Positions 2,107 to 33,109 of a stretch of 33,109 nucleotides of DNA are shown in pieces. A program made the translations under genes and the position numbers. This stretch comes from Micrococcales bacterium (GTDB lineage: Bacteria > Actinomycetota > Actinomycetes > Actinomycetales > Dermatophilaceae): the NCBI GenBank assembly GCA_003132125.1, contig PKWT01000031.1, positions 1-33,109 of the forward strand, read 5' to 3'. Position 1 is the stretch's first letter. Each line of letters begins with the position of its first letter. A model generated the notes under the pieces. That model was not told the origin of the DNA, made no database searches, and saw only the letters and a program-made list of their open reading frames with translations.

Positions 2107-3591
2107 TCAGTAGAACGAGTCGAGCAGGTCGTAGTCCTCAGGGGCCGTCTCCACCCACGCGAACCGGGCCACGGTCACGGCGTACAGCGGGGTGATGTCC
2201 GCGAGCGCCTTGCGGGTGAAGAGCCATGCGCCGTCGCCGACCATGCGCTTGGATGCCCCGGCGAGAGCGGTGTTGAGCATGGGTTCGTCAAGGTGGCGGA
2301 TCAGGGTGGCGAGGACGTCGTCGTAGAGGGCGCCGCAGGCGTCGACCTTGTCCCGGACGGAGAACCTGCGGACGTCGAAGCCCGCGGTCTCGAGGTCTGT
2401 CTTCAGTGCGCCGGCAGCGCCTGAGCCGTCGATCGCGACGAGGTTGCCGCCGTGGATCCGGCGCAGCTCGACGAGCTTCGCGACCGCGCCGTCGGTTCCT
2501 GCGATCTGGCCGATCGCCTCGACGTACACGCGGGCCGTCGGGTCGGACGAGCGAGCCGCGAGACCGAACGATGTCGTCGAGCGATCCGGCGCGACGTCCA
2601 GGCCCCAGACCGGCGGGCCGGTCCACGGTGCGTCGACGCCCTCAGGGACCTTGCAGAGCCCCCAGCTCGCCGGCGGGATGACACCGATGCCGGCTTTCTT
2701 GTCGCGCCACTGGTTGAGGTACGCGCGGCGGAACTCGTCGTCGTCCATCTTGTCGCGCTCGGCCTCGATGACGGACAGGTCGATCGTGTGGTCGAGAGCC
2801 GGGAGGCATCCTTCCCAGACGTCCGGGTCGTCGGCGTCGGCGTCGTCCAGTGCCGAGTACTCGAAGTAGGCCACTCGCGAGCGTGCGGATGGTGTCTGGA
2901 TGCGGGCCCGGCCATCGTCGACCTTGGCGCGTAGGTACGTCGAGTCGCCGTCGCCGGCGGCGGAGGCGATCCACAGCTGGGCGTTGGGCTTGGTCGTCAT
3001 GGCCGGGCTCATCGCCTGCTCGAGGCGGGAGTCCGTGTGAGCGAACGCCTCGTCGATGTGGCCCTCGTCGAGCGGCGGACCGTGGCCGGCCTTCTTCGTG
3101 ACCGCGTCGATCCACCACCGCGACCGGTTCGCGAACGCGATGTGCTCGCTGCCCGCGGCCGCCCTCAGACCCGGCTTCGGGCCGCCCGTCGCGGCAAGGA
3201 AGTAGCTAAGGGCACTGTCCGAGATCGGGTCGTAGAAGTCTTCTTCGAGGCGCCGGCGCGCCATGTTCCTGGTCTGCGCGGTGTACACGTGGCGCTGTCG
3301 CGGGGCCGACAGGCACCGGTGTGTGCCCTTGGCGAGGAGGATCGTGGTCTTGCCCTGCTGGCGCGGGATGATCAGCCGCACCTCGCGGTAGAAGAAGAAC
3401 CCCGTGGCCGGGTTGATCTCGCACGCGACGTCCGCGACGTACCGCTGCCACGGCATGAACGGTGTGCCGAGCGCGGCGCCGACCTTCGCGACCTTCCCGC
3501 CGAGGGTGGCGCGAGTCAGGTTGCGTTCAGTCCCGAACCGCGGGGGCGGGTCAGTCGCTCGAGCCGAGGTCACTGAGGAACGCCGCGGCAT
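2107..3591 (-). CDS. terL: Terminase large subunit
   Basis: Walker A-like IIPRQQGKTTILL, a large ATPase plus nuclease-sized protein, and position after terS. The start is uncertain: ATG 3591, GTG 3573 or GTG 3624 are all in frame and none has a clear SD. Confidence 0.92.
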   Translation of the reverse strand: MPRRSSVTSARATDPPPRFGTERNLTRATLGGKVAKVGAALGTPFMPWQRYVADVACEINPATGFFFYREVRLIIPRQQGKTTILLAKGTHRCLSAPRQRHVYTAQTRNMARRRLEEDFYDPISDSALSYFLAATGGPKPGLRAAAGSEHIAFANRSRWWIDAVTKKAGHGPPLDEGHIDEAFAHTDSRLEQAMSPAMTTKPNAQLWIASAAGDGDSTYLRAKVDDGRARIQTPSARSRVAYFEYSALDDADADDPDVWEGCLPALDHTIDLSVIEAERDKMDDDEFRRAYLNQWRDKKAGIGVIPPASWGLCKVPEGVDAPWTGPPVWGLDVAPDRSTTSFGLAARSSDPTARVYVEAIGQIAGTDGAVAKLVELRRIHGGNLVAIDGSGAAGALKTDLETAGFDVRRFSVRDKVDACGALYDDVLATLIRHLDEPMLNTALAGASKRMVGDGAWLFTRKALADITPLYAVTVARFAWVETAPEDYDLLDSFY

Positions 3592-4018
3592 CTTCGGAGA
3601 CGCTGGACCCGGCGGACACGGCACGCAGCCGGTTCAGCAGCTCCATCGTCCGCAGCTCGAGCGGGGACACCAGGTCGAGACGGTCGTGACGGTTGACCTG
3701 GTCGAGCATCCGCGCGTTCAGCCGCGCCATGCGCGAGAGCGTCCGCCTCCACGGCGGCTCGCCCGTCAACCCGCGCAGGTCGCGGCGCAACGCAGTCTCG
3801 ATGCTGCCCGCCGGCGCGGTGAAGTCGATCGACAACGGAGCAGCCACGGGCTCGACGTCCGCGAGGACGACCGCGGCCGCGACCTCCTCGTAGACGAGCT
3901 CGCGACGCTTGTTCGCCCGGTACGTGCGCATGTAGTCGCGCTTGGCCGCCCGGCAGATCTCGCAGTGACATCCGCGGCGGTAGCCGGCGAGGCCGTGGTT
4001 GGTCACCGGAGTCGCCAT
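3551..4018 (-). CDS. terS: Terminase small subunit (putative)
   Basis: 155-aa ORF directly upstream of terL. The N-terminal GYRRGCHCEICRAAKRDY motif is common in actinophage small terminases and DNA-binding proteins. GGAG lies 7 nt upstream of the ATG. Confidence 0.7.
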   Translation of the reverse strand: MATPVTNHGLAGYRRGCHCEICRAAKRDYMRTYRANKRRELVYEEVAAAVVLADVEPVAAPLSIDFTAPAGSIETALRRDLRGLTGEPPWRRTLSRMARLNARMLDQVNRHDRLDLVSPLELRTMELLNRLRAVSAGSSVSEDAAAFLSDLGSSD

Positions 4019-6077: not shown

Positions 6078-6742
6078 CGTGTCGTCTCCAGTTCTGGGAT
6101 CGGGTCGGCCATGGCCAGGCGGACGTGCTCGCCGAGGATCCCGATTGTCGTTGAGTCCCACGCTGAGCCGCAATGCCGGCAGACTGCGGCGAGCGGATCG
6201 AGTCGGACCTGCAGACCGCCGCGCTTGGAGCACACCATGCACGGCACGTTCGGCTTCAGCGGTGCCGTGTCCCAGGTCGTGACGATCCGCGCCTGAGCCC
6301 ACCAGCGCAACACATCCCGGTCGAGGCAACCGAGGTCGCCGGCGTCGAGCTCGTGCGCACGGGAACCGATCGTGACCAGATCCTGCGCCAACGTGCCCGG
6401 CTCGGACTGCAACGCCCGGCGGACCCACCACCTGGACTGGCGGCGGATCGTGCGCAGGCAGTCGACCGCATCGAGGCTCCCGGGCGGCTGCGAGTCGTAC
6501 CCCGACGACGACGTGCCGGCCGTGCTGCCACCGATGACCTGGGCCAGCTGCTCGATCAGCGGCGGGTACTCGGTGACCAACGGTCGAGGCTCCAGGCGCA
6601 CCCCGTCAGCCGAGAGCAGCCACTGGGTCTCCCGCGTCGTCATCGGCTCGGTCAGGTCAGCGATGCGATCCGAGATCCGCTCACGGATGACCTGACCCCG
6701 ATCGTGCTCAGCGTGCTGGTCTGGCCCACGGTGGTAGCCCAT
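6074..6742 (-). CDS. Hypothetical protein with C-terminal zinc-ribbon-like motif (222 aa)
   Basis: C-terminus CMVCSKRGGLQVRLDPLAAVCRHCGSAW (CxxC...CxxC). One-nt TGATG overlap with the upstream gene. Confidence 0.75.
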   Translation of the reverse strand: MGYHRGPDQHAEHDRGQVIRERISDRIADLTEPMTTRETQWLLSADGVRLEPRPLVTEYPPLIEQLAQVIGGSTAGTSSSGYDSQPPGSLDAVDCLRTIRRQSRWWVRRALQSEPGTLAQDLVTIGSRAHELDAGDLGCLDRDVLRWWAQARIVTTWDTAPLKPNVPCMVCSKRGGLQVRLDPLAAVCRHCGSAWDSTTIGILGEHVRLAMADPIPELETTR

Positions 6743-7701
6743 CAGGTGTCTCCTCGGTTCGGGTTGCGACGGCCACCCCTGCGACCACGACGGCGGGCAG
6801 GCGGATCAGACAATGCGAGATCGATAGCCGTGGAACGTCCAAGACCAAGATCAGGCCCGACCCGACCCGACCCGGCAGGTGTAGTTCTGACGGACCTCGG
6901 AACTGCATTCCGTGGGACTTCTTGGGGTACTTCTTGGGCACGCCCGGGCGCCGGTGCGGTGTTGTCGCTCGTCGCCGTCGCAGATCGCACTCTCTTGGGT
7001 GCGGTATCTGCGCCAGGCGCCAGCGCCAGTCGCACTTCGTCGTCCACGGGCGTGGTGGGGTATCCGTTGTCGGTCAGCTTCTTCGCGGTCGCCTCGCCAT
7101 ACCGAGGACGTTGCGGGGCAGGGCGCAGCGTGTGCGCCGAGTCCCACCGTTCGACGTCGCCGCCACGTGCCCGGTTGCAGCCCACGCATGCGACGACCAT
7201 CGTCTCGACCGTGCCGGGCTGGCCCGGGACCAGGTGATCCCACTCACCCGAGCGCGCCGTCTTGCGACCGAGCCAGACGACGCCGATCCCGCACCAGCGG
7301 CAACTGTCACCGTCGCGCAGCAGCACCGGGATGAGCAACGACACGTTCCGGGTGTCGTTGCGCTGCTGGCGCTCCCACTCGACCTCGGCCTTCGAGCGCA
7401 AGTGGATGAAGTCCGGGTCCTCGATGAGCTTGTACCCGGCCCCGTGATCGGTGCGGACCTTGGTCAGCAGCCTGTGCTTGACGGCCAGGCGCAGCAGCTC
7501 GGTCGTGCGGGACCCACCGAGCATCTCGACCGTTCCGACGTCCAGGACGTAGTCCGTCGTGTGGGCACCGGACTGCATCGACAGGCGCCACACGAACCCG
7601 GCAATCTCGTTGATGGTGCGGTCGTCGGCCCTGGCATCGCCGCGGACAGCCATCAACTTCGGGTAGGTGGCGCCAGTGTCGCCGCTGCGTTGCCAGGCCA
7701 T
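6742..7701 (-). CDS. wHTH-like N-terminal domain plus internal HNH motif protein (319 aa); candidate replication initiator/nickase
   Basis: CRWCGIGVVW...GEWDHLVPGQPG...VVACVGCNRARG is an HNH signature. Basic, disordered C-terminal tail (RRRGRRGGRRNPNRGDT). AAGGAGG lies upstream of the ATG. Confidence 0.75.
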   Translation of the reverse strand: MAWQRSGDTGATYPKLMAVRGDARADDRTINEIAGFVWRLSMQSGAHTTDYVLDVGTVEMLGGSRTTELLRLAVKHRLLTKVRTDHGAGYKLIEDPDFIHLRSKAEVEWERQQRNDTRNVSLLIPVLLRDGDSCRWCGIGVVWLGRKTARSGEWDHLVPGQPGTVETMVVACVGCNRARGGDVERWDSAHTLRPAPQRPRYGEATAKKLTDNGYPTTPVDDEVRLALAPGADTAPKRVRSATATSDNTAPAPGRAQEVPQEVPRNAVPRSVRTTPAGSGRVGPDLGLGRSTAIDLALSDPPARRRGRRGGRRNPNRGDT

Positions 7702-10200: not shown

Positions 10201-10616
10201 TCGGGGATCTCGGTACGGAACCGGGCCAGCTCGGCGAGGAGCCGGTCAGTCTGCTCCTCGATGTCGCCCTCGATACAGGTCGCGCCCGGCGGGACGTCAC
10301 CGAGGGCCTCCGCGATCCGCCAGCTGATCGCATTGAGCACGACCGAGTCGACGGTCAGGCGCCGGACCTCGGTCGCGCAGCAACCCTCGGGATGCGATGC
10401 GAGCGCGAGGAGCTCGTCAGGATGCAGGACTGGGTGCGGTGCGGTGGTCAGGCCGATCGGCTCCGAGAAGCCCTCGAGCGTGGCGGCCGCGAGCGCGAGG
10501 TTGGCGTGTACCTGGGCGACGGCGATGAAGCCGGTGCGCAGGGAGACGCTGATGGTTTCGCGGGCGTCGTCGAGAGCGGCCCGGGCCTGGTTGCGTTCTT
10601 GGTCGTAGGTGGTCAT
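10194..10616 (-). CDS. Hypothetical protein (140 aa)
   Basis: Trimmed from the 418-aa Pro/Arg-rich ORF to ATG 10616, which forms an ATGA overlap with the upstream stop. Starts MTTYDQERNQARAALDDARE. Confidence 0.72.
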   Translation of the reverse strand: MTTYDQERNQARAALDDARETISVSLRTGFIAVAQVHANLALAAATLEGFSEPIGLTTAPHPVLHPDELLALASHPEGCCATEVRRLTVDSVVLNAISWRIAEALGDVPPGATCIEGDIEEQTDRLLAELARFRTEIPEW

Positions 10617-11272
10617 GCGGTGTACCTGCTTTCGATGTTGAGGGCTTGGCGGTCGCGGAGGATGGTGCGGGCGGTTGAGGAGCAGCGGTGGGCGATCTTG
10701 GCGTCGGAGATGCCCTGGGCTGCGAGGCGAGTGACGATGAGCCGCCTTTCGGTGCGGGTGAGGGGTGTTCGGTGGCCGGTCATGGCGCGTCGGATCGCGA
10801 CCTCGTCGACTGCGGTGCTGGGTGGGGGGCCGAGTGACGGCTTGGCGGTCGGGTCGTCGATCGTGTCGTCGTCCCACGCGAGGGGTGGTGGCCAGCCGGC
10901 GGCCAGTGCGCGGGCCCGCGTGATCGCGGACGGGCCGGGCGTCATGGACAGGCGGTCGTAGAGGGCGGTGATCCGGCGGGCGGTGGTGGCCTCGATGCGG
11001 GGACGCTCGTCGGTGAGGTGGTGCACGGCGGATCGGGTGACGCCCAGGCGCTCGGCGAGGTCGCCATAGGTCCAGCCGATCGCCGAGAGTGCCTGGATCC
11101 GGCGGCGGGTGCCGACCGCGTTCAGCATGTGCGGGTTGCCGGTCAGGACGTCGAGGCGGTAGCGGGACTGGCGGCGGGCGGTGGCGGCGCTGCAGGGCGC
11201 GCAGCGGCACCCTGCGGAGTACCGGGCGGGCGTGCCGTGCCCGGGGGTGGACCCGGGGATGCCGCGGCTCAT
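10613..11272 (-). CDS. Helix-turn-helix DNA-binding protein (219 aa, two HTH-like segments)
   Basis: Trimmed to ATG 11272 (ATGA overlap). Contains the GTPARYSAGCRCAPCSAA motif, HTH GWTYGDLAERLGVTRSAVHHL, and a C-terminal HTH GISDAKIAHRCSSTARTILRDR. Confidence 0.78.
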   Translation of the reverse strand: MSRGIPGSTPGHGTPARYSAGCRCAPCSAATARRQSRYRLDVLTGNPHMLNAVGTRRRIQALSAIGWTYGDLAERLGVTRSAVHHLTDERPRIEATTARRITALYDRLSMTPGPSAITRARALAAGWPPPLAWDDDTIDDPTAKPSLGPPPSTAVDEVAIRRAMTGHRTPLTRTERRLIVTRLAAQGISDAKIAHRCSSTARTILRDRQALNIESRYTA

Positions 11273-11973
11273 ACCCCACCGACAGGTGCGTGGTAGGTGT
11301 CCTGGTCGTCGCGGATAGCCCGCTCCCAGCACTGCCCGCACGCGACGCCGCCGACCATCGACCGGTTGGCGTGGTGCACGGGCGTGCACGCGGCGGCCGC
11401 GACGTCGGCGAGGCAGTGACGGGCGGTGAACCACGTCGACCTGGGTGCACGGCGTTCGGCGATCGCCACCGACTTGTCGTGCAGCTCGCGGGCGAGGGCG
11501 GTTGCCTCGGCGACGGTCATCTCCTTCTTGACCACCATCTCAGTGACGTCACCGGGCAGGGTCCGCAGCAGCAGCCGACCGGTGATCGTCGACGCGGCGT
11601 ACCCGGTGCGCTGGGAGATCTCCGTGATCGTCATACCCGTGTCCCGCAGCGCCTGGAACGCCGCGGCCTGCTCGACGGGGCCGAGGGCCTTGTGCATCGC
11701 CGCGGCGAGCATCACCGCCACGTGAGAGGCCGAGGCCATCCGGGACGAGAGCGCCAGACACGGCAACGACTTCGCGCCGATCAGCTTCGCCGCCGCGAGA
11801 CGACGATGCCCGTCCACGACCACCCACCCGGTGCCCGACTGCGCGACCACGAGCGGCTGGAGCAGACCCACCGCGCGGATCGACGCGGCCAACTCGGTCA
11901 GGTCACCAAGGTCCCGGCGGACGTTGTGCGGGTGCGGGTGGATCTGGTCAACGGCGATCGTCGGGATGCTCAT
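11269..11973 (-). CDS. ParB/Srx-fold (ParB-like nuclease domain) protein, 234 aa
   Basis: [17 protein letters not shown]...[33 protein letters not shown] is the ParB N-terminal domain with a GxRR arginine patch. An HTH follows ([17 protein letters not shown]), and the C-terminus is Cys-rich. Confidence 0.88.
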
Positions 11974-13028
11974 GACCTCTCCCGCAGGGTTGCGAGCGCG
12001 GCCGGAAGCTCATCGGGTGCGGTGAGGACGTCGCGGGCCCGGGATCCGTTGCGCGGGCTGACGATGCCGGCGGCCGCGAGCGCGTCCATGAGCCGCTCGG
12101 ACTTCGCGAAGCCGACCCGGAGCTTGCGTTGCAGCATCGACGGTGACCCGAACTGGGTCGTGATGACAAGGTCTGCGGCCTGGGCGAGGAGGTCCGCGTC
12201 GCCCGGGTCGTCGTCGCGGATGATGCGCAGCGTGTTGACGCCGGCGACCAGGACACCGGAGCCGTGGCGGAGGATGTCGGCGGCCTGGCGGGTGAGGTCG
12301 TCGACGACCGCGGCCGGGACCGCGACCTTGACGGGGCGGCGGATCGGGTCGAGGACACCGGCCCACTCCACGGTGCGATCGGTGTCCTTGCGCCGGTCAT
12401 CCTCGTCGACGAGTGACGTCTCGCAGAACCCGAGGAGCGCGTCACCACACCGGATCACCAGGCTCTGGGATCTCGCGGTGATGATCGGCAACGATCCCCA
12501 CGCGGCCGCCGACGCCACGAACCGGCCCAGCAGGGCCATGTCCGCGCGAACTTGCACCGTCGACACCTGGCGGGACGTGAGGGCCGCGTGCATGATCCGA
12601 GGCAGATCCGGGTACGTGTCATCGCCAGTGATCTGGATGTGCGGGACCGTCAGCGAGCGCCCGTCGAGGAAGTCGGAGAGCTCGGTGAGCACGACGCGGT
12701 GATCGGTGCGTTCGATGCGCAGGTCCTGGTTGTCCCACATCATGCGGGCGTCCGGGTCTGAGGGGGCGCGGAACACCGCGAGGACGGCCTTGGCGGCCGC
12801 GACGGACAGGTCCCAGCCGTCCGCACCGCCGTCGAGGTGCTCGGCGCCCGTGCACCGTGCTACGACCCCGGTGTGACGGTCCGTCGCCCACACGAGCAGG
12901 GCGCCGCTGATCGGCAGGAACCGCAGGCGCCCGAAGTCGGGGGTCGACTCGGACTCCTTGCCGGCGTGCGGGAGGACCGAGGCGATCGCGGCACGCATCT
13001 GGCCCCGGCGGACCGTCATGGTCGTCAC
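11970..13028 (-). CDS. Beta-sliding-clamp-like N-terminal region fused to an FtsK gamma-type winged helix (about 352 aa)
   Basis: Trimmed from the 532-aa ORF to GTG 13028 (GTGA overlap); ATG 13019 is an alternative. N-terminus [36 protein letters not shown]...[11 protein letters not shown] resembles DnaN domain patterns. C-terminus [49 protein letters not shown] matches the FtsK gamma consensus. Confidence 0.75.
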
Positions 13029-14557
13029 GGCTTGGCCTTCGTGTGGGTGTCGATCGCGAGCTGCTCGACGGCCGCGAGGGGGTAGCCCCACGCGGCCAGG
13101 CGCACCAGGTGCGCGACCCAGACCGGCGCCTCGTAGCTCTGGCGCGCGTGCCAGAAGTCGCGCGCCCAACCGTGCTCGGCCTGCGCGGCCGCGAGCGCGA
13201 CCAGGTAGCGCAGTGCGGGGCCGGGCCGGTTGAAGTCGCGGAGCAGGTTCCGGTTGAAGTCGCGGAGCAGGTCCCGGTCGGAGAGCTTCTTGTCGCCGTA
13301 GAGCAGCTCCTGCGCCAGGGCGTCGTCGAGGAGGTTGAAGCGGCCGGCGTGCAGGATCTCGGCGACATAGGACTCGGCGTCGGCCGGCAGCACGGTGCGC
13401 TGCAGGAAGTCGTGGATCCACGCGCGGCGGACCGTGAACGCGGCATCGGAGGCCTTGTTGTTCGCGATCAGGGCGCGACGCTCGGCCTTCTGGTCCTCGT
13501 CCTGAGGGCCCGACGTCGCACCGGAGGACGCCTGCGCGTACCGGTTGACGTGACCGAGCATCTTCCACATCACGCAGTAGCAGGTGATGTCCGCGACGAA
13601 GCCGCGGTTGGCGGAGTGGTCGGACCAGTCGGGCTGCGCGGAGACGAAGACGCGGTGCCCGGGGCAGTCGGCGTGGTTCTCCGGGGTCAACCTCACCCTG
13701 CCGGCCTTGTCCTTGAGCTGGTCGATCTGCTCGACGTCCTTCGACCCGTACTTCGGACGTTCGTCCAGGGCAAGGATCCCCGCCGGCAACGCGGCCACAG
13801 CGGCAGCGATCACCACCGCACGGCGACGGTCGTCGCGGAACCCCTGGGCGGCGTGGACGAAGTCGCCCTGGTCTTCGGCGGCGACCTCCTCCAGTTCCCT
13901 GATGGTGTCCGGGGCGTCTTCGAACTCCGCAAGCACCGCCAGCTGGTCGATCGTCAGATCCGGGTGGGCCGCCATCGACGTCGACGCGGCCTTCGACGCG
14001 GCCACGAGAAGGGCCTGCTCGACGGTCCTCTTCGGCTGACCGGTGCGCTTCGCGATCGTCGTCGCGGACCGCCCGAACGCGGCGAGCTGCTCGAACGCAC
14101 GAACCTGCTCACCGTCCGTCAAGGCCTCGCGACCGGTGTTCGCGGTGAGCTGGTCCCAGATGCGGGCCTCGTCGTCACCGACCGGGGGAAGCATCGCGAT
14201 CGGCACCGACGTCAGACCGAGCTCCAGGGCGACGACGAGGCGCCGCTGCCCATCGACGACCAGCAGATTGCCCAGTGGGTCCGTCCGGCACAACAGCGGG
14301 ACCAGCACACCGTGCTCGGCGACCAGGGCCTTGAACTCCGGCGTGATCTTCAGGTCCGCGCGAGTGTTCGTGTCCAGGGTCAGCGTCGCCGGGTCAACCT
14401 CGACCCGCTCGAGACCGAGGACCTGGTGGCGACCGCCGAGGACCTCGTGACCGGCACCCGTGAGAGTGTCCAAGGCGGGCGACGGGCGGGCCTCGGTCGG
14501 CGCGGCCGCCGGCACCGGCGTGCGCTTGGTCGCGGGCTTCTTCGCAACGGTCGTCAC
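13025..14557 (-). CDS. Large ParB N-terminal-domain protein (510 aa)
   Basis: [21 protein letters not shown]...[33 protein letters not shown] is a ParB/Srx domain with a GxRR patch. An HTH follows ([19 protein letters not shown]), then a long C-terminal region of unknown type. Confidence 0.85.
13229..13276. repeat. 24-bp tandem duplication (2 copies, 1 mismatch) inside the 510-aa ParB-like gene, encoding [15 protein letters not shown]
   Basis: gttgaagtcgcggagcaggttccg / gttgaagtcgcggagcaggtcccg, read directly from the sequence. Confidence 0.9.
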
Positions 14558-14781
14558 GAGGCCACCTCGCCGAGGACAGCCCTCAGGTCGGCGAGGTCGG
14601 CCTTGAGCAGGCGCGACGTCTCCTCGGCGAAGTCGAGGTTGTTTCGGGCGTTCTCGACGTCCGTCGCTGCGCGGATGACCTTGGGGAGCAGGTCGTCGAT
14701 CTCCGCCTCGAGGATGGCGCGGACCGATGCCGGGATCACGACCATGGGCACGATCTTGAGGTCGATGTTGGCGGTACTCAT
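14554..14781 (-). CDS. Hypothetical small helical protein (75 aa) preceding the ParB-like gene
   Basis: Trimmed to ATG 14781 (ATGA overlap). Its stop overlaps the GTG start of the ParB-like gene. Starts MSTANIDLKIVPMVVIPASVRAILEAEIDDL. Confidence 0.65.
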   Translation of the reverse strand: MSTANIDLKIVPMVVIPASVRAILEAEIDDLLPKVIRAATDVENARNNLDFAEETSRLLKADLADLRAVLGEVAS

Positions 14782-15086
14782 TCGGGGGTTCCTTCCGTGG
14801 CCGTCGAGGCCGGTTCGGTACGGTGTGCGGCTACCCGGGCGGGGCAGGTCGCAAAGTGGGTGATGGCCGGGTGCTCGGCCGGACCGATCGGGACGTCGGC
14901 CGTGATCGGGCGGCACGTGGTCCACCCGGACGAGACGGCATGCGACGGGGCCAGCCCATCGGGAAGGTGCGGGTCCAGGGGCAGGAACTTGCGGGGGCGA
15001 CCAGCGACCAGGTGCGTGGGGATGACCATCACCAAGACGAGCGGCCTACCGCAGGAACGGCACCGGGTCGTGCGCCGGCGGCTCAC
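14778..15086 (-). CDS. Cys/His zinc-ribbon-like domain protein (102 aa), paralogous to part of 7801..8418
   Basis: Trimmed to GTG 15086 (GTGA overlap). RCRSCGRPLVLV...FLPLDPHLPDG...CRPITADVPIGPAEHPAITHFATCP. Confidence 0.62.
   Translation of the reverse strand: MSRRRTTRCRSCGRPLVLVMVIPTHLVAGRPRKFLPLDPHLPDGLAPSHAVSSGWTTCRPITADVPIGPAEHPAITHFATCPARVAAHRTEPASTATEGTPE
14874..14913. repeat. Copy A of a dispersed 40-nt repeat (37/40 identical to 16725..16764)
   Basis: Hand alignment: ctcggccggaccgatcgggacgtcggccgtgatcgggcgg versus ctcggccgggccgaccgggacatcggccgtgatcgggcgg. Flanks are unrelated. Confidence 0.85.
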
Positions 15087-16261: not shown

Positions 16262-16518
16262 CGCTGGGCCGCCTTCACGCGCCGAGACTCACGCCGCATG
16301 GTCAGGCAGATCTCGCCGACCACGACCACCCAGAACGACCCGGCAGCACTGACGATCAGCAGCGGCACGTCGCTACGCGAACCAACCGCGTGCAACACCC
16401 ACGCGGCCGCGCAGATGAGGACCCAGGCCACCACGGTGACGATGGCCAGGTCGACCAAAACCTGAACGGGCGACCACACCAGCGCTGGTGCCGGTGCGGG
16501 CCCGGGCGCGGCGGTCAT
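16258..16518 (-). CDS. Small membrane protein (86 aa, 2-3 TM)
   Basis: ORF-track protein with hydrophobic stretches VLVDLAIVTVVAWVLICAAAWVL and LLIVSAAGSFWVVVVGEICL. ATGA overlap at the start. Confidence 0.7.
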   Translation of the reverse strand: MTAAPGPAPAPALVWSPVQVLVDLAIVTVVAWVLICAAAWVLHAVGSRSDVPLLIVSAAGSFWVVVVGEICLTMRRESRRVKAAQR

Positions 16519-16892
16519 CGCCGGCCGTCCTTGCGACGGGCATCATCCGCGGACATCGCGGCCAGGATCTCCACCGCGGCGAGAACCACCAGCGACGCGA
16601 GGAACGCGTCAGGCAGGGACGACGAGAGGTGCCGCACGATCACGACGACGAGCGAGACGACCACGACGCGGCGGAGCCACCTGCCGACGCGGGCGGCGTC
16701 CCGGATGAGCCGGTCGACCACGTCCTCGGCCGGGCCGACCGGGACATCGGCCGTGATCGGGCGGGCGTGCGCGGAGCGTGGCGGCGCACCGAAGAGGTGC
16801 GGGCGCCGGCAGTGCGAGTCGGTGCACGGGGCATACTCGGCGGCCCGGTCCGGGGCGAAGTGGAACCGAGGATCCGCGGTCCACTTGCTCAC
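16515..16892 (-). CDS. Membrane protein (125 aa) with N-terminal Cys/His segment and the RPITADVPVGPAE motif
   Basis: ORF-track protein with C-terminal TM stretches VVVVSLVVVIV and FLASLVVLAAVEILAAM. ATGA overlap at the start. Confidence 0.65.
   Translation of the reverse strand: MSKWTADPRFHFAPDRAAEYAPCTDSHCRRPHLFGAPPRSAHARPITADVPVGPAEDVVDRLIRDAARVGRWLRRVVVVSLVVVIVRHLSSSLPDAFLASLVVLAAVEILAAMSADDARRKDGRR
16725..16764. repeat. Copy B of the dispersed 40-nt repeat (37/40 identical to 14874..14913)
   Basis: See copy A. Both copies are in the minus-strand coding frame and encode RPITADVP(I/V)GPAE. Confidence 0.85.
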
Positions 16893-17805: not shown

Positions 17806-18249
17806 ATGAGTCAGCAAACGGTGCTACCGCTCCCCGATCCGCAGGAGGGCCTCACGAGCCAGATCGCGCGCGCGTTGCGCGGAGTGCTCGCCGAGCGTCA
17901 GATCAGTGGCAACCGTCTCGCGCACGAGACGGGCCTCTCACAGTCGCGGATCTCGCGGCGCCTTACCGGCGAGTATCCGCTGGACACCGACGAGCTCGAC
18001 GTGATTCTCACAGTGGTGGGGGTGTCGATCGACGAGCTGCTGGACCGGGCAGCGAGAAGCCCCCGTCCGGATGGTCCGGACGGGGGCCGAAGAACAGTGC
18101 GCCATCCGCGACTCGAACGCGGAACCCGCTGGTTAAGCGTCTGCGCTGGTCAGAGCGCCCCCGATGGGCCGGAGGGCGGAGCGGACGTCATCGCGTTCCC
18201 GGGCAGCCGTCGGTCCGCCAGCACCCCGGCCGGAACTGAGGCCGCCTGA
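17806..18249 (+). CDS. Repressor-like XRE-family HTH protein (147 aa from ATG 17806), with a long C-terminal tail ending ...PAGTEAA
   Basis: HTH QISGNRLAHETGLSQSRISRRLTGE, about half identical by eye to the Cro-like protein. It is co-oriented with int. The tail is read through a hairpin and a tRNA-like segment. In-frame upstream starts (17734 GTG, 17743, 17752) are possible. Confidence 0.8.
   Translation: MSQQTVLPLPDPQEGLTSQIARALRGVLAERQISGNRLAHETGLSQSRISRRLTGEYPLDTDELDVILTVVGVSIDELLDRAARSPRPDGPDGGRRTVRHPRLERGTRWLSVCAGQSAPDGPEGGADVIAFPGSRRSASTPAGTEAA
18059..18087 (-). terminator. Perfect 13-bp-stem hairpin (gcccccgtccgga / tccggacgggggc) lying 10 nt downstream of the tRNA-like 3' end on the minus strand
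   Basis: Read directly from the sequence. On the minus strand it is followed by cttctcgc. It lies inside the repressor ORF. Confidence 0.5.
18098..18139 (-). other. tRNA 3'-half mimic (T-arm, acceptor 3' strand, discriminator A); candidate attP core
   Basis: The minus strand reads GGTT CCGCG TTCGAGT CGCGG ATGGCGC A, a canonical T stem-loop plus a 7-nt acceptor strand. The upstream CGCTTAA resembles an anticodon loop, but no pairing anticodon stem and no 5' acceptor strand exist. It is therefore a fragment, not a gene. Confidence 0.5.
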
Positions 18250-18518
18250 TGAGCACCACGACGACCCACGCGGCCGCGCGCCCGACGTCGGGCGACGAGC
18301 TGTACACGATCGGACTCGCACTGCAGGCCGAGTACGCCCGGGGCCTGGCCGCCGGGCGCGCCGAGGCCAGCGCCGCGATCGCTACCCTCGCCATCCGCGA
18401 AGAGGCCAACTGGCAGGCCGCATACACCGAGCACCGATCCCGGTGGATGCCCATGAGCTGGTACCTCGACGCACTCGAGGACGCCCGGGCCGCGGCCGCC
18501 GGCAAGGTGACCCGGTGA
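18249..18518 (+). CDS. Hypothetical protein (89 aa)
   Basis: ATG overlaps the repressor stop (TGATG). Ala-rich and helical. Confidence 0.6.
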   Translation: MSTTTTHAAARPTSGDELYTIGLALQAEYARGLAAGRAEASAAIATLAIREEANWQAAYTEHRSRWMPMSWYLDALEDARAAAAGKVTR

Positions 18519-18847
18519 GCCCGCGCGGAGACCACTCCGAGTTCTCCGGGTTCGTTCGCCGGATCCTGCGCGCCTACTCGCGGCGGTGCGCGTGCGCCGA
18601 CCCCGACGACCTCACCGAGTTGCTCGCCCTGCAGGGCGAGGTCGACACCGCCATCACCGCCGCCGTGGCGGGCCTGCGCCGATCCGGCTTCTCGTGGGCC
18701 GAGATCGCCACCGCCGCGCACACCACACGGCAGGCCGCCCAGCAGCGCTGGGGCGTCAAGGCAGCCTTGACGACAGAACCAGTTGTGCTGAACGACACAC
18801 CAGCGACACCCGTGCGCACCATCCGCGTGGCCACAGCCGCGGTCTAG
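18515..18847 (+). CDS. Putative HTH protein (110 aa); possible excisionase/regulator
   Basis: GTG 18515 forms a GTGA overlap with the upstream stop. HTH-like GFSWAEIATAAHTTRQAAQQRWG. Confidence 0.6.
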   Translation: MSPRGDHSEFSGFVRRILRAYSRRCACADPDDLTELLALQGEVDTAITAAVAGLRRSGFSWAEIATAAHTTRQAAQQRWGVKAALTTEPVVLNDTPATPVRTIRVATAAV

Positions 18848-23316: not shown

Positions 23317-25677
23317 TCATGGGGAGACTCGCAGGGGCAGGGCGTCGGCTTGGGCTGCGGTGACGCCGCCGGGGCGCGACGCGGCCCACTGGGAGTCGTG
23401 GTACGCGGCGGTGGAGGCGGCCCAGCGGGCGTCGTAGGTGGCCACGGTGACGGCGGCCGGGGGGATGAGGCGCAGGCCGAGCTTGCACGTCATCCGACGT
23501 TCCTCGGTCAGGGCGAGGGTCGGGTCGATGCGGGTGATGCGGGCTTGCTGGGTGGGCATCCGCCCGGCGGTGTCGGTGACGGTGACGAGGTCGCCGAGCT
23601 GCCAGCGCGGATCCCATTGGGTCTCGACGTCCTCGAGGAGCAGACGCGGGTGTGAGAGGGCGTCGAGCAGCGAAGCCACCAGGGTCGCCGTGCCGACCGG
23701 GTCCTGACGCCACTGGGACTCGGTCAGCTCCCACGTGCGCGGGGTGTACAGGTACGCGGTGCCGTCGTTCGTCGCGGAGACGGGCACGGTCGGGATCTCC
23801 GCGTCGATGGGGGTCGCCCACCCGGACAGGATCAGGGACGGCGCACCGCCCTGCAGCGCCCACGGGAGCGCCCCTGCCCACCCGGTGGGGATCACCGTGT
23901 ACACGTTCACTCCGGTCAGGTTCACGACGGTGAGCAGGAGCGTGGTGGCCGAAAGCTGGAGGATCGAGACGGTCGGGATCGACGGAGAGGACATGGTGAT
24001 CTGCCCGGACGACCCGTCAGCGACCGTGCACAGGGTGATCATGTGATAGCCGACGAACGAGGCCGGCATGCCACCACCGGTCCACAGGTAGACGGCGTGA
24101 CTCTCGATAATCACGGGGCGGGGGGCGGTGATGATCTGCGACGTCGTGCCGGGAGGAAACGCGAGGACCTGGCCCAGCACGCACGGCGCCTGCCACACAC
24201 CCGACCGGTCCAGGCCGGCAGCCCGGTACGTCATCGGGCGGACCTTCGCGGTGACCGTGGACACGACCGCGGCGAGCGCGGTGCCGCCGACAAGGTTCTT
24301 GGCGATGTCCGTGCCGATCGTGGCGACCGGGGTCGTGGTCGCGTTCAGTGTCGCCGCGGACCGGAAGAAGGGCCGGCCCGCCTCGTTGAACCCGACCGCG
24401 CCGCCCTCAGCGGCGGCCACCTCCTTCAGGACATCCCAGGAGACGCGGCCCGCGACAATGGGCACATAGTCCATGTTCAGGACGGACTGGTCGACGTCGG
24501 CCTGGGCGGCGAACGTGGCCCCGCCGATCGCCGAGTCGAATGCCACACCGGGCGCGAACCCGTGAATCTGCAGGGCCTGGCTCGCGAAGTTGGCGGCCAC
24601 CTGTATCCACAGAGGCGTCCCGCCGCCTATCAGCACAGGAAAGACGGCCGTACCGGAGCTGACAGCGGCACCGTCTACCCACATCGCGTAGTTGCCCTCG
24701 TAGCGCAACTGAAAGGCGACGTGATGCCACCCCGCGGTCACGGTTCTCGTGCCGAGGTTGGTGCTGACGTCGAACCCGGTGTCCCAGTTGTCCGAGGTCA
24801 GGGTGAGCGTCGTCCCTGACAGGGTCAGATAGAAGGTCGGGTCACCGCCCGCACCATTGATCCTGAAGATCTCATGGGCACCGCTCGAGGGCGGAACACA
24901 GTTCCACCAGCCCTCCACAGAGACCCCGACACCGGGATTCCAGACGAGCGTCCCGATCTCGGCCCAGTAAGCGAGAAGCCCATCGTTGACCGAGAGGGCA
25001 GGTCCGAACGGTCCCGGGATCCACGAGGGCTCAACCCGCACAAAGGAAGACGGCACAGAGTACGGCGGCATCGTCCGCCCAACCTCCGCGAGCAACCCGC
25101 CCACCCCAGGCACGGACAGCAGGCACCCGGCGCGTGGGGCCGGGGTCATGCGGATCCCGTTCGCGTGCAGCGCCGCGGTGACAACAGCAGACAGGTTCGT
25201 CGGACGCGCCGGGACAAGACCCGGCTGCGCGGACAGCCCAGCCGACCCGAACTGCGGCAGCGTCAGCGGCGCCCGCAGCAGGTCCGCACCATCAAGACAG
25301 GACACCTTGATCTGCCGCGACAGCTCATCGATGCTCATCTCGCGGACCGTGCCAGTGAACACCGGCACCGTGAGCCCCGCGAAGCCCGCCTGGACACGCA
25401 CCGGGGCACTGGTCCAGTCGATGCGGTCCGCGTCCGCGAGAGGGTTCGGGGCGCCCGTCATGAACCCGTCCACGTCCAGGGTGGCCTTCGCCGCGATCGA
25501 CCCCGATACCTCGGACGCCAGGTCCGGGAGGTCGCCGGCCAGCTCACGGGTGATCGCGATCTTCGACGTCATCGGAGCCAGGTCGCGGGTCGTACCCCAC
25601 ACGTCCGCCTGAACCGTGATCGTGGGCGACGTGCCGGCCGCGAGCGCGGCAGCGAACCCCGTGGGACCGGTCTGCAT
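23317..25677 (-). CDS. Large minor tail protein (786 aa), distal-tail/tip protein with a LamG/concanavalin-like central region
   Basis: Immediately follows the tape measure gene (TGATG overlap). The segment GWHHVAFQLRYEGNYAMWVDGAAV is typical of LamG-type lectin folds. Confidence 0.8.
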   Translation of the reverse strand: MQTGPTGFAAALAAGTSPTITVQADVWGTTRDLAPMTSKIAITRELAGDLPDLASEVSGSIAAKATLDVDGFMTGAPNPLADADRIDWTSAPVRVQAGFAGLTVPVFTGTVREMSIDELSRQIKVSCLDGADLLRAPLTLPQFGSAGLSAQPGLVPARPTNLSAVVTAALHANGIRMTPAPRAGCLLSVPGVGGLLAEVGRTMPPYSVPSSFVRVEPSWIPGPFGPALSVNDGLLAYWAEIGTLVWNPGVGVSVEGWWNCVPPSSGAHEIFRINGAGGDPTFYLTLSGTTLTLTSDNWDTGFDVSTNLGTRTVTAGWHHVAFQLRYEGNYAMWVDGAAVSSGTAVFPVLIGGGTPLWIQVAANFASQALQIHGFAPGVAFDSAIGGATFAAQADVDQSVLNMDYVPIVAGRVSWDVLKEVAAAEGGAVGFNEAGRPFFRSAATLNATTTPVATIGTDIAKNLVGGTALAAVVSTVTAKVRPMTYRAAGLDRSGVWQAPCVLGQVLAFPPGTTSQIITAPRPVIIESHAVYLWTGGGMPASFVGYHMITLCTVADGSSGQITMSSPSIPTVSILQLSATTLLLTVVNLTGVNVYTVIPTGWAGALPWALQGGAPSLILSGWATPIDAEIPTVPVSATNDGTAYLYTPRTWELTESQWRQDPVGTATLVASLLDALSHPRLLLEDVETQWDPRWQLGDLVTVTDTAGRMPTQQARITRIDPTLALTEERRMTCKLGLRLIPPAAVTVATYDARWAASTAAYHDSQWAASRPGGVTAAQADALPLRVSP

Positions 25678-27227
25678 CAGCGGACCGCCTCAGAGGCCTC
25701 GTAGCGCTTGACGGTGCGGTACAGCTCGCGCCCGTCGAGGTTGACGACGGTGGTGATCTCTTGGACGGACCCCGCGCTCGAGCGGCCGTTCAGGCTGCCG
25801 GCGACCATGTCCGCGAACTCGGAGGCCTTGTTGAACGGGAGCACCGCTTCGGTGCCGCCCTCACCGATCATCGCGATGGTCGCCTTGGTGGCCACACCAC
25901 CCTCGGCGAGGTAGGGGAGCTGCGGGACGCGCATCGTGAACCCGCCGATCACACCGATCCCCGGGATGTGCGTGTCGATCGACGGCAGGGACAGGTGGAT
26001 GCCGTTCCACCCGCCGATGATCCAGTTGATGACACCCCGGAAGCTGTTCTTGATGCCGTCCCACATGCCCGACGCCGCGGAACCGATCCGCCCAGGGATG
26101 CCGCCGATGAACCCCACCAGGTAGTTCCACCCGCCGACGATCCAGTCCTTCGCCACGAGCGCACCATTGGAGATCGCCGACCAGGCGTAGGTCCACGCGG
26201 TCTGGAACCAGGTCGTCTTTGTCGCCACCCACACGATGCCGGCGACCAGGGCCGCGATACCGATGATGATGATGCCGATCGGGTTCGCGGTAGCGGCAGC
26301 GTTCCACGCCCACTGGGCCGCGGTGCCGATGGTCTTCGCCGTCGTGTAGATGCCCTCCCAGTGGGCCGCGATCGCGACCGCACCAGCGATCACACCGATC
26401 GTGGTCGCGAGCGCGATCGCGGCCGGCTGGTTTGCGTTCATCCAGTCGAGGATCTGCAGGCCTGCGTTGGCGAACCCGCCCACGGCGGGCATGGCCTTTT
26501 GAACGATCGACTGGGAGAGGTCCTCGAAGGACCGCTGCCCGCGCTGCATCTGCCCGGGGACCGAATCGCCCGCGGCCTTCGCCGCACCACCGAACTCGGT
26601 GGTGAGCTCACCGAGGATCAGCTTCTGCGCGCCCGCGACGTCGCCGGTGGCGACCATCGCCTTGATCGTTTCCTTCTGCGACGCGGTGAACTGGACGCCC
26701 ATCTTCCCGAGCGCGGTGATCCCGTTGACCGGGTCGTTCAACGCCTTGCCGAGCTTGACGGCCATATCGGAGGCGTCGCCGCCCATCTTCGCGGCCATGT
26801 CCGCGGTGGCCTTCGTGGCCTGATCGAAGATCTTGTCCGGGCCGTTGTTCTTGATGTTCGTGAACGTGAGCAGCAGCTGCTCGGACTTCACGATCGAATC
26901 GTCCGTCTGGCCCGAGTAGCCCTGGACCGAGGTGGCCAACGCCTCCAAGCCTTCGACGGACACGCCTGCCGCGTTGCCCGTGGACTTGATCCCGGCCTCG
27001 AGCTGCGCCTGCCCTGTGGCCGCGTCCATGGCCTCCTGGGTGCCGGTGTGAACGATCGCCGCCATCGCGGCCACACCGCCGGCGAGAACGCCCGTGGCCA
27101 CGCCACCAGAGACCTTCAGGGCGTCCCACTTCTTGCCCTGACCGTCGATCGAGGACCCGATGTTGTCGAGGATCTTCGAGGCCTTGTCGTTCGCGATGAT
27201 GTCGAAGATCAGGTTCGCACCGGCCAC
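25677..27227 (-). CDS. Tape measure protein (516 aa)
   Basis: Gly/Ala-rich with central TM-like stretches (IGIIIIGIAALVAGIVWV). Conserved TMP-like N-terminus (GQTDDSIVKSEQLLLTFTNI). Positioned after the chaperones. GTG start. Confidence 0.92.
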   Translation of the reverse strand: MAGANLIFDIIANDKASKILDNIGSSIDGQGKKWDALKVSGGVATGVLAGGVAAMAAIVHTGTQEAMDAATGQAQLEAGIKSTGNAAGVSVEGLEALATSVQGYSGQTDDSIVKSEQLLLTFTNIKNNGPDKIFDQATKATADMAAKMGGDASDMAVKLGKALNDPVNGITALGKMGVQFTASQKETIKAMVATGDVAGAQKLILGELTTEFGGAAKAAGDSVPGQMQRGQRSFEDLSQSIVQKAMPAVGGFANAGLQILDWMNANQPAAIALATTIGVIAGAVAIAAHWEGIYTTAKTIGTAAQWAWNAAATANPIGIIIIGIAALVAGIVWVATKTTWFQTAWTYAWSAISNGALVAKDWIVGGWNYLVGFIGGIPGRIGSAASGMWDGIKNSFRGVINWIIGGWNGIHLSLPSIDTHIPGIGVIGGFTMRVPQLPYLAEGGVATKATIAMIGEGGTEAVLPFNKASEFADMVAGSLNGRSSAGSVQEITTVVNLDGRELYRTVKRYEASEAVR

Positions 27228-28414: not shown

Positions 28415-29443
28415 TCAGACGACGGTGTCGGTCGTGACATGCACGACCGTGAACGGCGGGTTCACGAGGTTGCTCAGGCCGTCGAAGTCGATGGACTGGG
28501 TGATGACCTGACCGCCGTTGGATGCCGGGATGTTGCCGTTCAGGTTGATCAGCGGCACCCAGATCTGCAAGACCGGGTGAGCGGATGTCCCGATGATCGC
28601 CGGGTGGGTGAACGTGAGCAGCAGCGCCAGGTCTGTCTGGGCGAGGTACGCGTCGCGGAGCTCGACCGTGTCGTACTCCGCGGTGATCTTCCCGGTCAGC
28701 TTCGCCGGACCCACGGCCGGCTTGCGGGTCCGCTTGCCCGCGCCGCCCAGGTTCCACCCCTTGGCGTCCAGGCCCTGGTCCCACTTCAGGGAGAAGCTCG
28801 TGATGTCCGCGACCGAGGTGCCACCCGTGGCGATCGCCGTGGTCGTCGGACCCACCACGGTGCCACCGATGCAGATCACCCCGTGGACGAACGTGAAGAC
28901 GTCCAGAGGCGTCGGGTACGACGGGGCCGCGTAGGCGGGTGCGGTCTGGACCTCGCGGGCCGTCCAGTCCGTGGTGACCTCGACGATCTCGCCCTGCTTC
29001 GCGGAGATCTCCATCGACTTGCACGCCGAACCGAGGAACGTGATCGGCGTCGTCGCCCCACCACCGAGCGGCGGGATGCCCTTCTGGATCGTGTAGCTGT
29101 TGATCGGATCCGTCAGGGCCGGGGTGTGCACCTGCTGGTAGACAGGCGGCGTCTGGCCCGCTACCACGGTCGACGTGACCGCACCCATCGCCGCGTTGAG
29201 GAAGATCCCCAGGCCCTTGATCGGAGCCTCCAGAGTGATCGACCCTTCAGCGAGCTCCTCACCCAGGGAGCGCCGGTCAGCGCGGTCCACGCGAGACGCG
29301 ACACGCAGACCCTTGCCCTGCAGGAACGTCGGCTTACGGTCCAGGGACTCCGTCAAGAACTCGGGGAACTGGTCGACGACTACGGCCGTGCCGTAGGTCG
29401 CCTCGACCTTGATGCCGATGCTGCAATCCGCTTGCGTGGTCAT
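28415..29443 (-). CDS. Major tail (tube) protein (342 aa)
   Basis: IGIKVEATYGTAVVVDQFPEFLTESL... is a typical tail tube N-terminus. Size and position upstream of the chaperones and tape measure fit. Confidence 0.72.
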   Translation of the reverse strand: MTTQADCSIGIKVEATYGTAVVVDQFPEFLTESLDRKPTFLQGKGLRVASRVDRADRRSLGEELAEGSITLEAPIKGLGIFLNAAMGAVTSTVVAGQTPPVYQQVHTPALTDPINSYTIQKGIPPLGGGATTPITFLGSACKSMEISAKQGEIVEVTTDWTAREVQTAPAYAAPSYPTPLDVFTFVHGVICIGGTVVGPTTTAIATGGTSVADITSFSLKWDQGLDAKGWNLGGAGKRTRKPAVGPAKLTGKITAEYDTVELRDAYLAQTDLALLLTFTHPAIIGTSAHPVLQIWVPLINLNGNIPASNGGQVITQSIDFDGLSNLVNPPFTVVHVTTDTVV

Positions 29444-32924: not shown

Positions 32925-33109
32925 CTACTTCAGTGCGTCGAGCTCCAACGAACGGAGCAGGACGCTCGCCGGGGCCGAGTGCGTGGCGCGCTGCTCGGTC
33001 GGCGACGGGTCGGACCGCGGCATCGGCATCTGCGCCGCGGAATCAGTGGCCGGCTCGGCGGCGTCGTCGTCGTCGACGTCGTCGGGGTCGGGGTCGGGGG
33101 ACGGGACCT
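32925..33109 (-). CDS. C-terminal tail of the prohead protease (continuation of 652..1 across the window junction), acidic/Pro-rich, ending ...LLRSLELDALK
   Basis: Own translation. The split codon (33108, 33109, 1) reads AAG, and the frame runs uninterrupted to TAG at 32925..32927. Sequence: ...AAYLKVPSPDPDPDDVDDDDAAEPATDSAAQMPMPRSDPSPTEQRATHSAPASVLLRSLELDALK. Confidence 0.7.
   Translation of the reverse strand, partial: VPSPDPDPDDVDDDDAAEPATDSAAQMPMPRSDPSPTEQRATHSAPASVLLRSLELDALK

Follow-up and report, generated by a model that had tools for sequence, protein, structure and literature searches.

What use has a phage equipped with a tyrosine integrase for two ParB-like proteins and, encoded between them, a protein that joins a relative of the beta sliding clamp to the gamma domain of FtsK? 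The question is posed by contig PKWT01000031.1 of the Micrococcales bacterium assembly GCA_003132125.1, the whole of which (33,109 bp, hereafter 'the window') was analysed here, and in which a preliminary description made from the sequence alone had picked out four translationally coupled genes. The N-terminal part of the fusion protein has, on profile and model evidence, a real relationship to DnaN, cut down to one full and one reduced domain; its C-terminus is an FtsK gamma winged helix; and clamp-like genes of this family recur beside ParB-like genes in distant phages. We tentatively read the four genes, with rather less than even confidence, as an early-lytic accessory set for replication or recombination, in which a clamp docking platform would be held on DNA beside nucleoside triphosphate (NTP)-gated ParB clamps. 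Many small temperate actinophages are without recognisable replication genes, and the recurrent pairing of an orphan ParB with a cut-down clamp is a candidate for this missing machinery. Such a pairing would give orphan phage proteins of the ParB-CTPase fold a role outside partition, and homologues in cultured, tractable Gordonia and Mycobacterium phages make the idea directly testable.

The four genes are minus-strand open reading frames (ORFs) of 75, 510, 352 and 234 amino acids (aa), joined by 4-nucleotide (nt) start/stop overlaps (GTGA at 14554-14557, GTGA at 13025-13028 and ATGA at 11970-11973). Their G+C content at third codon positions (GC3) is 0.90-0.92, a strong coding signal. The ORFs lie where the preliminary description put them, and the overlaps agree with its coupling, which extends through a further ATGA overlap (11269-11272) to a fifth gene at 10613-11272. 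In order of transcription, the features are:

14554..14781, minus: acidic protein of 75 aa (isoelectric point, pI, 4.5), first gene of the run, with a GGAAGGA ribosome-binding site upstream
13025..14557, minus: large ParB/KorB-like protein of 510 aa (ParB510), from phrog_6218, PDB profile and fold matches
11970..13028, minus: fusion protein of 352 aa, read from a GTG start, comprising the next four segments
12639..13028, minus: fusion aa 1-130, predicted complete DnaN-type clamp domain, from AlphaFold2 (AF2) secondary structure and the DnaN domain II alignment
12333..12638, minus: fusion aa 131-232, predicted reduced second clamp domain and long helix, from AF2 and the YPDLPR alignment
12204..12332, minus: fusion aa 233-275, linker of a short conserved helix and a disordered stretch, from the AF2 predicted local distance difference test score (pLDDT)
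11970..12203, minus: fusion aa 276-352 and stop codon, FtsK gamma winged helix, from PF09397, 2ve8 and AF2
11269..11973, minus: small ParB of 234 aa (ParB234) with ParB N-domain, helix-turn-helix (HTH) and Cys-rich tail, from Pfam, TIGR00180 and 1vz0
10613..11272, minus: basic (pI 11) multi-HTH protein, from phrog_1590 (E 2e-40) and HTH_23

The clamp-like part of the fusion

Pfam returned no match to the first 275 residues of the fusion, and DNA_pol3_beta was absent at E<=0.1. A profile of 24 family members matched the DnaN of Thermotoga maritima (1vpk) with E=5.8e-7, query residues 10-211 aligning with chain positions 137-335, which correspond to domains II-III, and some forty other beta clamps were matched more weakly; a profile of the N-domain only had the same outcome (1vpk, E 6e-6). 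Residues 1-130 align with domain II of the T. maritima and mycobacterial proteins. In the N-domain-only profile the phage stretch PHAGKDEDTPVLGRVRL...LLVMATDRYT lies against AGRDDTLPMLTGIRVEI...VLAATDRFRLAV of mycobacterial DnaN, and the phage YPDVPR (YPDLPR in the window protein) aligns with DnaN FPDYKRVIP at the junction of domains II and III. E. coli DnaN (the sequence of 1mmi) does not discriminate, as the first half-domain fits its domains I, II and III with about the same low quality. The assignment to domains II-III is therefore based solely on the alignments with T. maritima and actinobacterial DnaN.

The AF2 model of the fusion (mean pLDDT 88.4) begins with a complete clamp domain of two beta-alpha-beta-beta-beta units (aa 1-130), followed by a reduced domain of two helices and three strands that carries the YPD motif (aa 131-206), a long helix (aa 209-229), a short helix (aa 245-255), a disordered stretch (aa 258-273, pLDDT <50) and the gamma winged helix (aa 276-351). 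The short linker helix is conserved in close relatives, those that lack gamma included. Within the family, the first clamp domain is marked by PHAG and ATDR(H/Y)T motifs and by the invariant H21 and T53, and the second by the invariant P140. When the model was compared with the PDB by Foldseek, all of the top 50 matches were beta clamps or PCNA (probability 1.0, E ~1e-7). As no more than a portion of a clamp protomer is represented, the TM-scores of these matches stay modest (0.33-0.55). Since the profile matches and the Foldseek matches all lead to beta clamps or PCNA, we regard the predicted DnaN-type fold, and homology to DnaN, as real.

DnaN has three domains per protomer, of which I and III form the head-to-tail dimer ring. 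Neither the alignment nor the AF2 monomer of the fusion has this three-domain architecture: its clamp-like part spans ~206-230 aa, with one full and one reduced domain, and DnaN domain I is absent. The earlier proposal that the N-terminal ~250 aa resemble DnaN is thus borne out for the fold and shortened in extent, and the ring that it envisaged is not supported, domain I being absent and the second domain reduced. The partner-binding pocket of DnaN is formed by segments T172-L177, P242-V247 and M362-R365 (PMC11139829), and the best-kept motifs of the phage family, ATD, YPD..R and, in most members, LMP.R, fall on pocket segments in an alignment that is ambiguous for E. coli. A residue-level mapping of the E. 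coli pocket was dropped, the family profile being ambiguous between DnaN domains I, II and III.

The FtsK gamma domain

The preliminary description had recognised an FtsK gamma domain at the C-terminus, and this is amply confirmed: PF09397 (FtsK_gamma) scores 72.1 bits against a cut-off of 30.6 over aa 279-336, the family profile matches 2ve8 (E 3e-11), and AF2 predicts the three-helix winged-helix fold (helices 276-291, 296-303 and 307-319 plus wing) with pLDDT >90. Structure prediction, which had been proposed as the check on both halves, thus yields both the clamp fold and the winged helix with high confidence. Over its last ~75 residues the fusion shares 65-72% identity with actinobacterial FtsK gamma domains, and the consensus of 15 phage fusions is nearly identical to that of 97 other gamma-bearing matches, mostly actinobacterial FtsK, so the DNA-contacting surface of gamma has probably been retained. 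The window protein departs from both consensuses in helix 3 and the wing, at AKAGRLMDLLE and GPSEGSKAR (SPRNGSRAR in the window). The region between helices 2 and 3 of the E. coli FtsK domain can touch KOPS DNA or XerD, though not both at once, and gamma alone, even a stretch of nine residues, activates XerD (PMC5052618). The candidate GGGNAGGG occurs three times on the plus and once on the minus strand of the window, with no significant skew.

Pfam found no FtsK motor domain (PF01580/PF17854) in the fusion, whereas the host FtsK matches do carry PF01580; the name 'FtsK-like DNA translocase', under which some relatives are filed, is therefore a misnomer. Gamma domains also occur in tandem, with two or three copies each in the proteins P0271 (204 aa, three gamma stretches), P0276, P0283 and P0291.

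The two ParB-like proteins

Both proteins assigned earlier to the ParB fold, each with an N-domain and HTH, belong there. ParB234 exceeds the cut-offs of TIGR00180 (68.5 against 58.45), ParB_N (41.9 against 26.3; 1e-10) and HTH_ParB (37.9 against 22.6; 2e-9) and aligns at residue level with Spo0J (1vz0, E 1e-21). ParB510 stays under the cut-offs of ParB_N (21.9 against 26.3) and TIGR00180 (37.5 against 58.45); it matches phrog_6218 ('ParB-like partition protein') end to end with E 7e-50, Spo0J (1vz0) with E 6e-8, and Noc and ParB structures too by sequence. The best Foldseek match to its AF2 model (pLDDT 85.9) is KorB from a complex with KorA (8qa9, TMt 0.64), followed by ParB and Noc, in each case over the N-terminal half only; the second half had no PDB match. 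A disordered N-tail (aa 1-48) precedes the ParB N-domain and HTH (aa 50-255), after which come a beta-hairpin region and a helical C-terminal domain (aa 354-506). The two proteins are paralogs, 31% identical over 159 aa.

ParB, Noc and KorB are CTP-dependent DNA clamps. Where Spo0J and Noc have GERR and ENLQRE, ParB510 has GQRR and ANTGRE, keeping GxRR and N..RE, and ParB234 has GHRR and AAMHKA, a degenerate box III. By analogy with ParB, Noc and KorB, ParB510 is likely to be an NTP-gated DNA clamp; for ParB234 this is doubtful. According to a 2025 survey, mobile elements commonly carry orphan proteins of the ParB fold, which bind CTP, ATP or GTP; the survey flags them as functionally open and says nothing on a pairing of ParB with a clamp (PMC12704722).

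Beyond the HTH, H295, C298, C328 and H336 are invariant in the ParB510 family and lie on beta hairpins, where they probably form a zinc site. Because a Cys/His-rich H-x-ANR...C segment is found in both proteins (ParB234 aa 175-234, 11269-11450; ParB510 aa 293-338, 13540-13680), a common zinc-binding module is suggested.

The N-tail of ParB510 (aa 10-48, 14414-14530) bears the motifs KR(T/S)xVPAP and ALDxLTG, conserved in the Micrococcales-type members only; homologues in Gordonia phages have no N-tail and begin directly at the ParB domain. The idea that these motifs form a docking peptide for a pocket on the clamp-like protein was rejected, as the Gordonia and L092 ParBs are without them and still have a clamp gene nearby. 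The ParB510 gene also contains a tandem 24-nt duplication (13226-13273) that is missing in the 75%-identical homologue P0122.

Family size and gene neighbourhoods

How widely does the arrangement recur? A HMMER scan of 1.84 billion cluster representatives (50% identity clusters; threshold E<=1e-30) placed at least 667 clusters in the clamp-like family, with and without gamma. Among the best 150 of the 667, ~80 extend to gamma, ~60 are stand-alone N-domains of 226-300 aa and four are the proteins with repeated gamma domains. The N-domain is too divergent for BLAST, and tblastn with it alone against phage genomes returned only three records.

Gene neighbourhoods were surveyed at 31 clamp-like loci from IMG/VR, metagenomes and genomes, with fetched flanks and redundant loci kept. 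A ParB-like gene lies in the fetched flank of 19 of these 31, so the co-occurrence in related phages that had been proposed as a check is indeed found. Close relatives without gamma also adjoin two ParBs, in the orders ParB302, 73 aa, ParB234, clamp300 (L084) and ParB498, ParB233, 108 aa, clamp282 (L088); the linkage of ParB is therefore with the clamp-like domain and not with gamma. It is seen from the other side as well, since a search starting from ParB510 homologues found a clamp-like gene nearby in a Cellulosimicrobium prophage (L092), a Georgenia prophage (L093) and the closest relative (L097). The order of genes shifts from ParB-clamp-ParB in the window to ParB-ParB-x-clamp in L088 and ParB...ParB-clamp in L006, and varies in L092 and L097 too. 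Flanking ParBs, as originally described, are thus a true feature of the window; in its relatives the order varies, ParB is not obligatory and gamma is optional.

In temperate Gordonia phages that have been cultured, and that represent three genera, the gene order is ~500-aa ParB, small ORF, clamp::gamma. In GenBank they appear as follows:

RayTheFireFly gp58-gp60: 'ParB-like nuclease domain protein' gp58, fusion gp60
Bowser gp51-gp53: 'ParB-like nuclease domain protein' gp51, fusion gp53
Ewald gp42-gp44: 'ParB-like nuclease domain protein' gp42, fusion gp44

Their fusions bear the GenBank names 'DNA polymerase III sliding clamp beta' and 'FtsK-like DNA translocase'; a third name, 'RusA-like Holliday junction resolvase', is used in the RefSeq records of Bowser (L089, NC_030930), Nyceirae (NC_031004) and Schnabeltier (NC_031255) and for phrog_12598. 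A RusA identity was rejected, there being no RusA Pfam match and the fold being that of a clamp. The wrong label may perhaps be explained by the mycobacteriophages, in which RusA is the adjacent gene: Sejanus gp65 and BigNuz gp51, remote homologues of the clamp-like protein (hhalign 90%, E 1.5e-6), lie between RecE/RecT and RusA, with no ParB in the locus. The three conflicting database names are thus each partly right or wrong. No paper was found on the clamp::gamma fusion or on its link with ParB, which accords with the earlier remark that no function had been described for it; the Gordonia GenBank records do already name both domains. The architecture, in other words, is present by domain in public phage annotations, and belongs to a large family whose function is uncharacterised.

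The phage genome and its other genes

The window has 66-73% G+C, with nearly every gene on the minus strand. A terminal repeat was looked for at its ends and none was found; the ends join in frame. Since the head protease ORF continues in frame across them, the window is a whole 33-kb temperate siphophage genome, circularly permuted. Large-ParB homologues in Cellulomonas, Cellulosimicrobium and Georgenia genomes indicate that the host of the phage is probably a member of the Micrococcales. Genes identified through PHROG are:

2-652, minus, start at 652, reading across position 1 into 33109..32925 to the stop codon: head protease
645-1856: portal
2107-3456: large terminase
3551-4006: HNH endonuclease
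18848/19115-19756, plus: tyrosine integrase, <=302 aa
20899-21981: endolysin
25677-27227: tape measure protein
28415-29443: minor tail protein
30406-31059: head-tail adaptor
31574-32806: major head protein

No replication initiator, helicase, primase or polymerase was recognisable by Pfam or PHROG in the window ORFs scanned. The ParB/clamp gene set sits between the immunity/integrase region and the HNH/terminase genes, the interval in which siphophage replication genes are usually located. A minus-strand ORF at 6742-7701 (319 aa, weak GC3 signal, Pfam-negative) aligns with positions 1-270 of phrog_15463 and phrog_26098 ('HNH endonuclease', 435-463 aa) with E 6e-64; in Bowser (gp61), Ewald (gp49) and RayTheFireFly (gp66) the same genome arm encodes a protein of comparable size, named 'HNH endonuclease' or hypothetical. 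This ORF could conceal a replication function.

At the head of the operon, the 75-aa protein has no Pfam, PHROG or PADLOC match and is absent beside the ParB homologues of the other loci surveyed. The 300-nt gap upstream of its gene holds one copy (14871-14913) of a 43-nt direct repeat, 91% identical, whose second copy (16722-16764) lies inside the ORF at 16515-16892; both read RPITADVP(I/V)GPAE on the minus strand, and the repeat may have a regulatory function or may have arisen by duplication of a coding fragment. At the other end, genes of the phrog_1590 type stand near clamp-like or gamma genes in L004, L006, L011, L020, L039, L059, L063 and L093, and the multi-HTH protein is possibly a fifth member of the gene set. 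Between the early operon and the integrase, five near-perfect palindromes cluster within 17900-18800 (17914-17931, 18064-18082, 18279-18294, 18623-18640 and 18754-18772), likely the operator/terminator region of the lysis-lysogeny switch. GC-rich tandem repeats (GGCGCGGGCGTCTCCGGCGCGGGC...) with spacings of 9, 15 and 24 nt occupy 31235-31330, between the major head and adaptor genes. Screening with the PADLOC defence models brought up no meaningful match.

Possible roles of the gene set

In the accessory role that we tentatively favour, the 352-aa protein would be a stripped-down homologue of the host beta sliding clamp that has lost the third domain, and the borrowed FtsK gamma head would hold it on DNA, replacing the loading of a ring by the clamp loader. 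The clamp-fold part would then act as a docking platform that recruits phage partners, or those enzymes of the host that bind clamps (polymerase, ligase, repair or recombination factors), to the phage DNA, on which ParB510 and ParB234 would load as NTP-gated clamps of the KorB/ParB/Noc type to organise or mark it. Four steps of this scheme are inferred: that gamma tethers the protein to DNA, that host factors dock on it, that the ParBs bind nucleotide and that ParB and clamp touch. Among the roles first suggested (origin handling, genome condensation, host interference) the choice has not been narrowed decisively; context favours phage DNA replication or recombination, because of the early-region position, the lack of recognisable replication genes, the clamp ancestry and the ParB or RecET/RusA neighbourhoods. 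A bolder version, in which orphan ParB NTP clamps and a ring-less, gamma-tethered clamp homologue contact each other directly, jointly capture the Pol III replisome or the repair enzymes of the host and replace the missing initiator or helicase-loader, seems to us quite unlikely.

Several points weigh against the accessory role. ParB is missing nearby at 12 of the 31 clamp-like loci, so that the two kinds of protein are able to work apart; ParB234, with its degenerate box III, may not bind nucleotide; and the window yielded neither a parS-like site nor a repeated one. A clamp homologue accounts for neither origin melting nor helicase loading, and, as many early ORFs carry no annotation, a divergent replication gene may be hidden among them. 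The coincidence of family motifs with the partner-binding pocket lends the accessory role partial but weak support, the E. coli alignment being ambiguous between clamp domains; any clamp fold would be expected to show these motifs for structural reasons, and the window protein has CETS in place of the MP.R strand. No paper on the family was found.

Of the alternatives, a plasmid-type partition system, with the ParB proteins acting on an extrachromosomal prophage, is extremely improbable and close to refuted. ParB234 does pass the ParB/RepB/Spo0J model (TIGR00180), and some actinophages reportedly use parABS (Dedrick 2016, as cited in PMC12704722); against this, no ParA was found by Pfam or PHROG in any window ORF scanned, neither ParB-like protein has the ParA-binding LG(R/K)GL motif, no canonical parS with <=3 mismatches occurs in the whole window (a non-canonical site may exist), and homologues reside in integrated prophages (L092). 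A tyrosine integrase without a ParA in the ORFs scanned makes a classical partition role unlikely, as the preliminary description had argued for an integrating phage. The missing ParA fits a role of the ParB-like proteins as sliding-clamp regulators in the style of KorB, which would silence phage transcription or set its timing, with the clamp-like gene no more than an operon neighbour. The KorB-KorA complex as best structural match to ParB510, the presence of two paralogous HTH-bearing ParBs and a multi-HTH protein in one operon, the clamp-like loci without ParB and the varying order of ParB and clamp genes (window, L006, L088, L092, L097) all point that way. The linkage was, however, found from both directions and survives rearrangement and gamma loss across distant phages, and the window offers no operator-like repeated site: direct and inverted repeats, over-represented or strand-skewed 7-10-mers and KOPS variants yielded nothing above chance as a loading or target site, and palindromes are at chance level against Markov shuffles, with none repeated and the only cluster in the immunity/integrase region (17.9-18.8 kb). 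Such regulation is, on balance, rather improbable.

Two further alternatives start from the gamma head. Host takeover, in which gamma occupies host FtsK motifs or binds XerD and the clamp part titrates clamp-binding proteins or caps DnaN, so that host replication, segregation or division stalls in lytic growth, would suit a gamma that matches the host consensus almost residue for residue and has one surface for KOPS DNA and XerD (PMC5052618). The gamma part also matches PHROG 13700, a family in the host takeover category, and the ring-closing domain I is missing, as a decoy would predict. We nonetheless hold takeover to be unlikely: stand-alone versions without gamma are about as common as fusions, and the linkage to ParB, RecET and RusA points to phage DNA transactions. 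Cytotoxic 'sliding clamps' are described from mycobacteriophages (Adephagia gp35 and Waterfoul gp48; PMC11373665, PMC11797047); Adephagia gp35 was considered and dropped as evidence, and its toxicity is not transferable to the window fusion, because it is not a homologue (hhalign 1%). In the other alternative gamma would activate a tyrosine recombinase of the Xer type (XerD of the host, or the short integrase of the phage), and the fusion would thereby control the resolution of phage genome multimers or integration and excision. The power of as few as nine gamma residues to activate XerD (PMC5052618), the shortness of the integrases (<=302 aa in the window phage, 269-286 aa in fusion-bearing Gordonia phages) and the mycobacteriophage homologue gene that abuts the RusA Holliday-junction resolvase speak for this; but gamma is dispensable in many family members, the integrase of the L092 prophage is an ordinary one of 377 aa, the residues at which the window gamma deviates fall precisely in the part that contacts XerD and DNA (helix 2-helix 3 and wing), and the clamp fold is left without a role. 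We therefore consider Xer activation decidedly improbable.

Comparison with known systems

The closest parallels to the window are the Gordonia phages, which are likewise temperate siphophages with a tyrosine integrase and carry the gene set in the early region. Their fusions have the same two-part architecture (344-349 aa; N-domain hidden Markov model E 1e-63 to 1e-86) and are paired with a ~500-aa ParB that has a ~270-320-aa C-terminal extension. They are, however, only 27-32% identical to the window protein and keep the LMP.R strand that it lacks; a small ORF separates ParB from clamp, and no second ParB follows. Their annotations were made by homology alone and are inconsistent.

With KorB, ParB and Noc the window ParBs share the N-domain and HTH fold, with GxRR in both and N..RE in ParB510. 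They differ in that no ParA, KorA or membrane-targeting partner is evident, that the glutamate of GERR is Q in ParB510 and H in ParB234, that ParB234 is without box III, and that the C-terminal half of ParB510, Zn-like and helical, is peculiar to its family. The gamma head agrees with FtsK gamma in its PF09397 score well above the cut-off, its winged-helix fold and its near-identity to the host consensus; unlike FtsK, the fusion is without the alpha/beta motor (no PF01580) and has substitutions in helix 3 and the wing.

To DnaN the fusion is related by fold and by detectable sequence homology, which extends to the FPDY junction motif and, in domain II of the actinobacterial protein, to the stretch AGRDDTLPMLTGIRVE...ATDRF. 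It differs in its domain content (a full domain and a reduced one, against three in DnaN, with none corresponding to domain I), in its lack of a Pfam DNA_pol3_beta match and in its own predicted DNA-binding head. The best BFVD structural matches to the N-domain are phage 'mini-clamps', namely the 'DNA polymerase III beta subunit' of Rhodococcus phage REQ2 (266 aa), the best of all, and ~200-aa proteins of uncultured siphophages; they superpose on it with E down to 3e-14, TMt 0.6-0.74 and a root mean square deviation of ~4 A, and are without gamma. A loose analogy may be drawn with herpesvirus UL42, a processivity factor of the clamp fold that binds DNA directly and does not encircle it.

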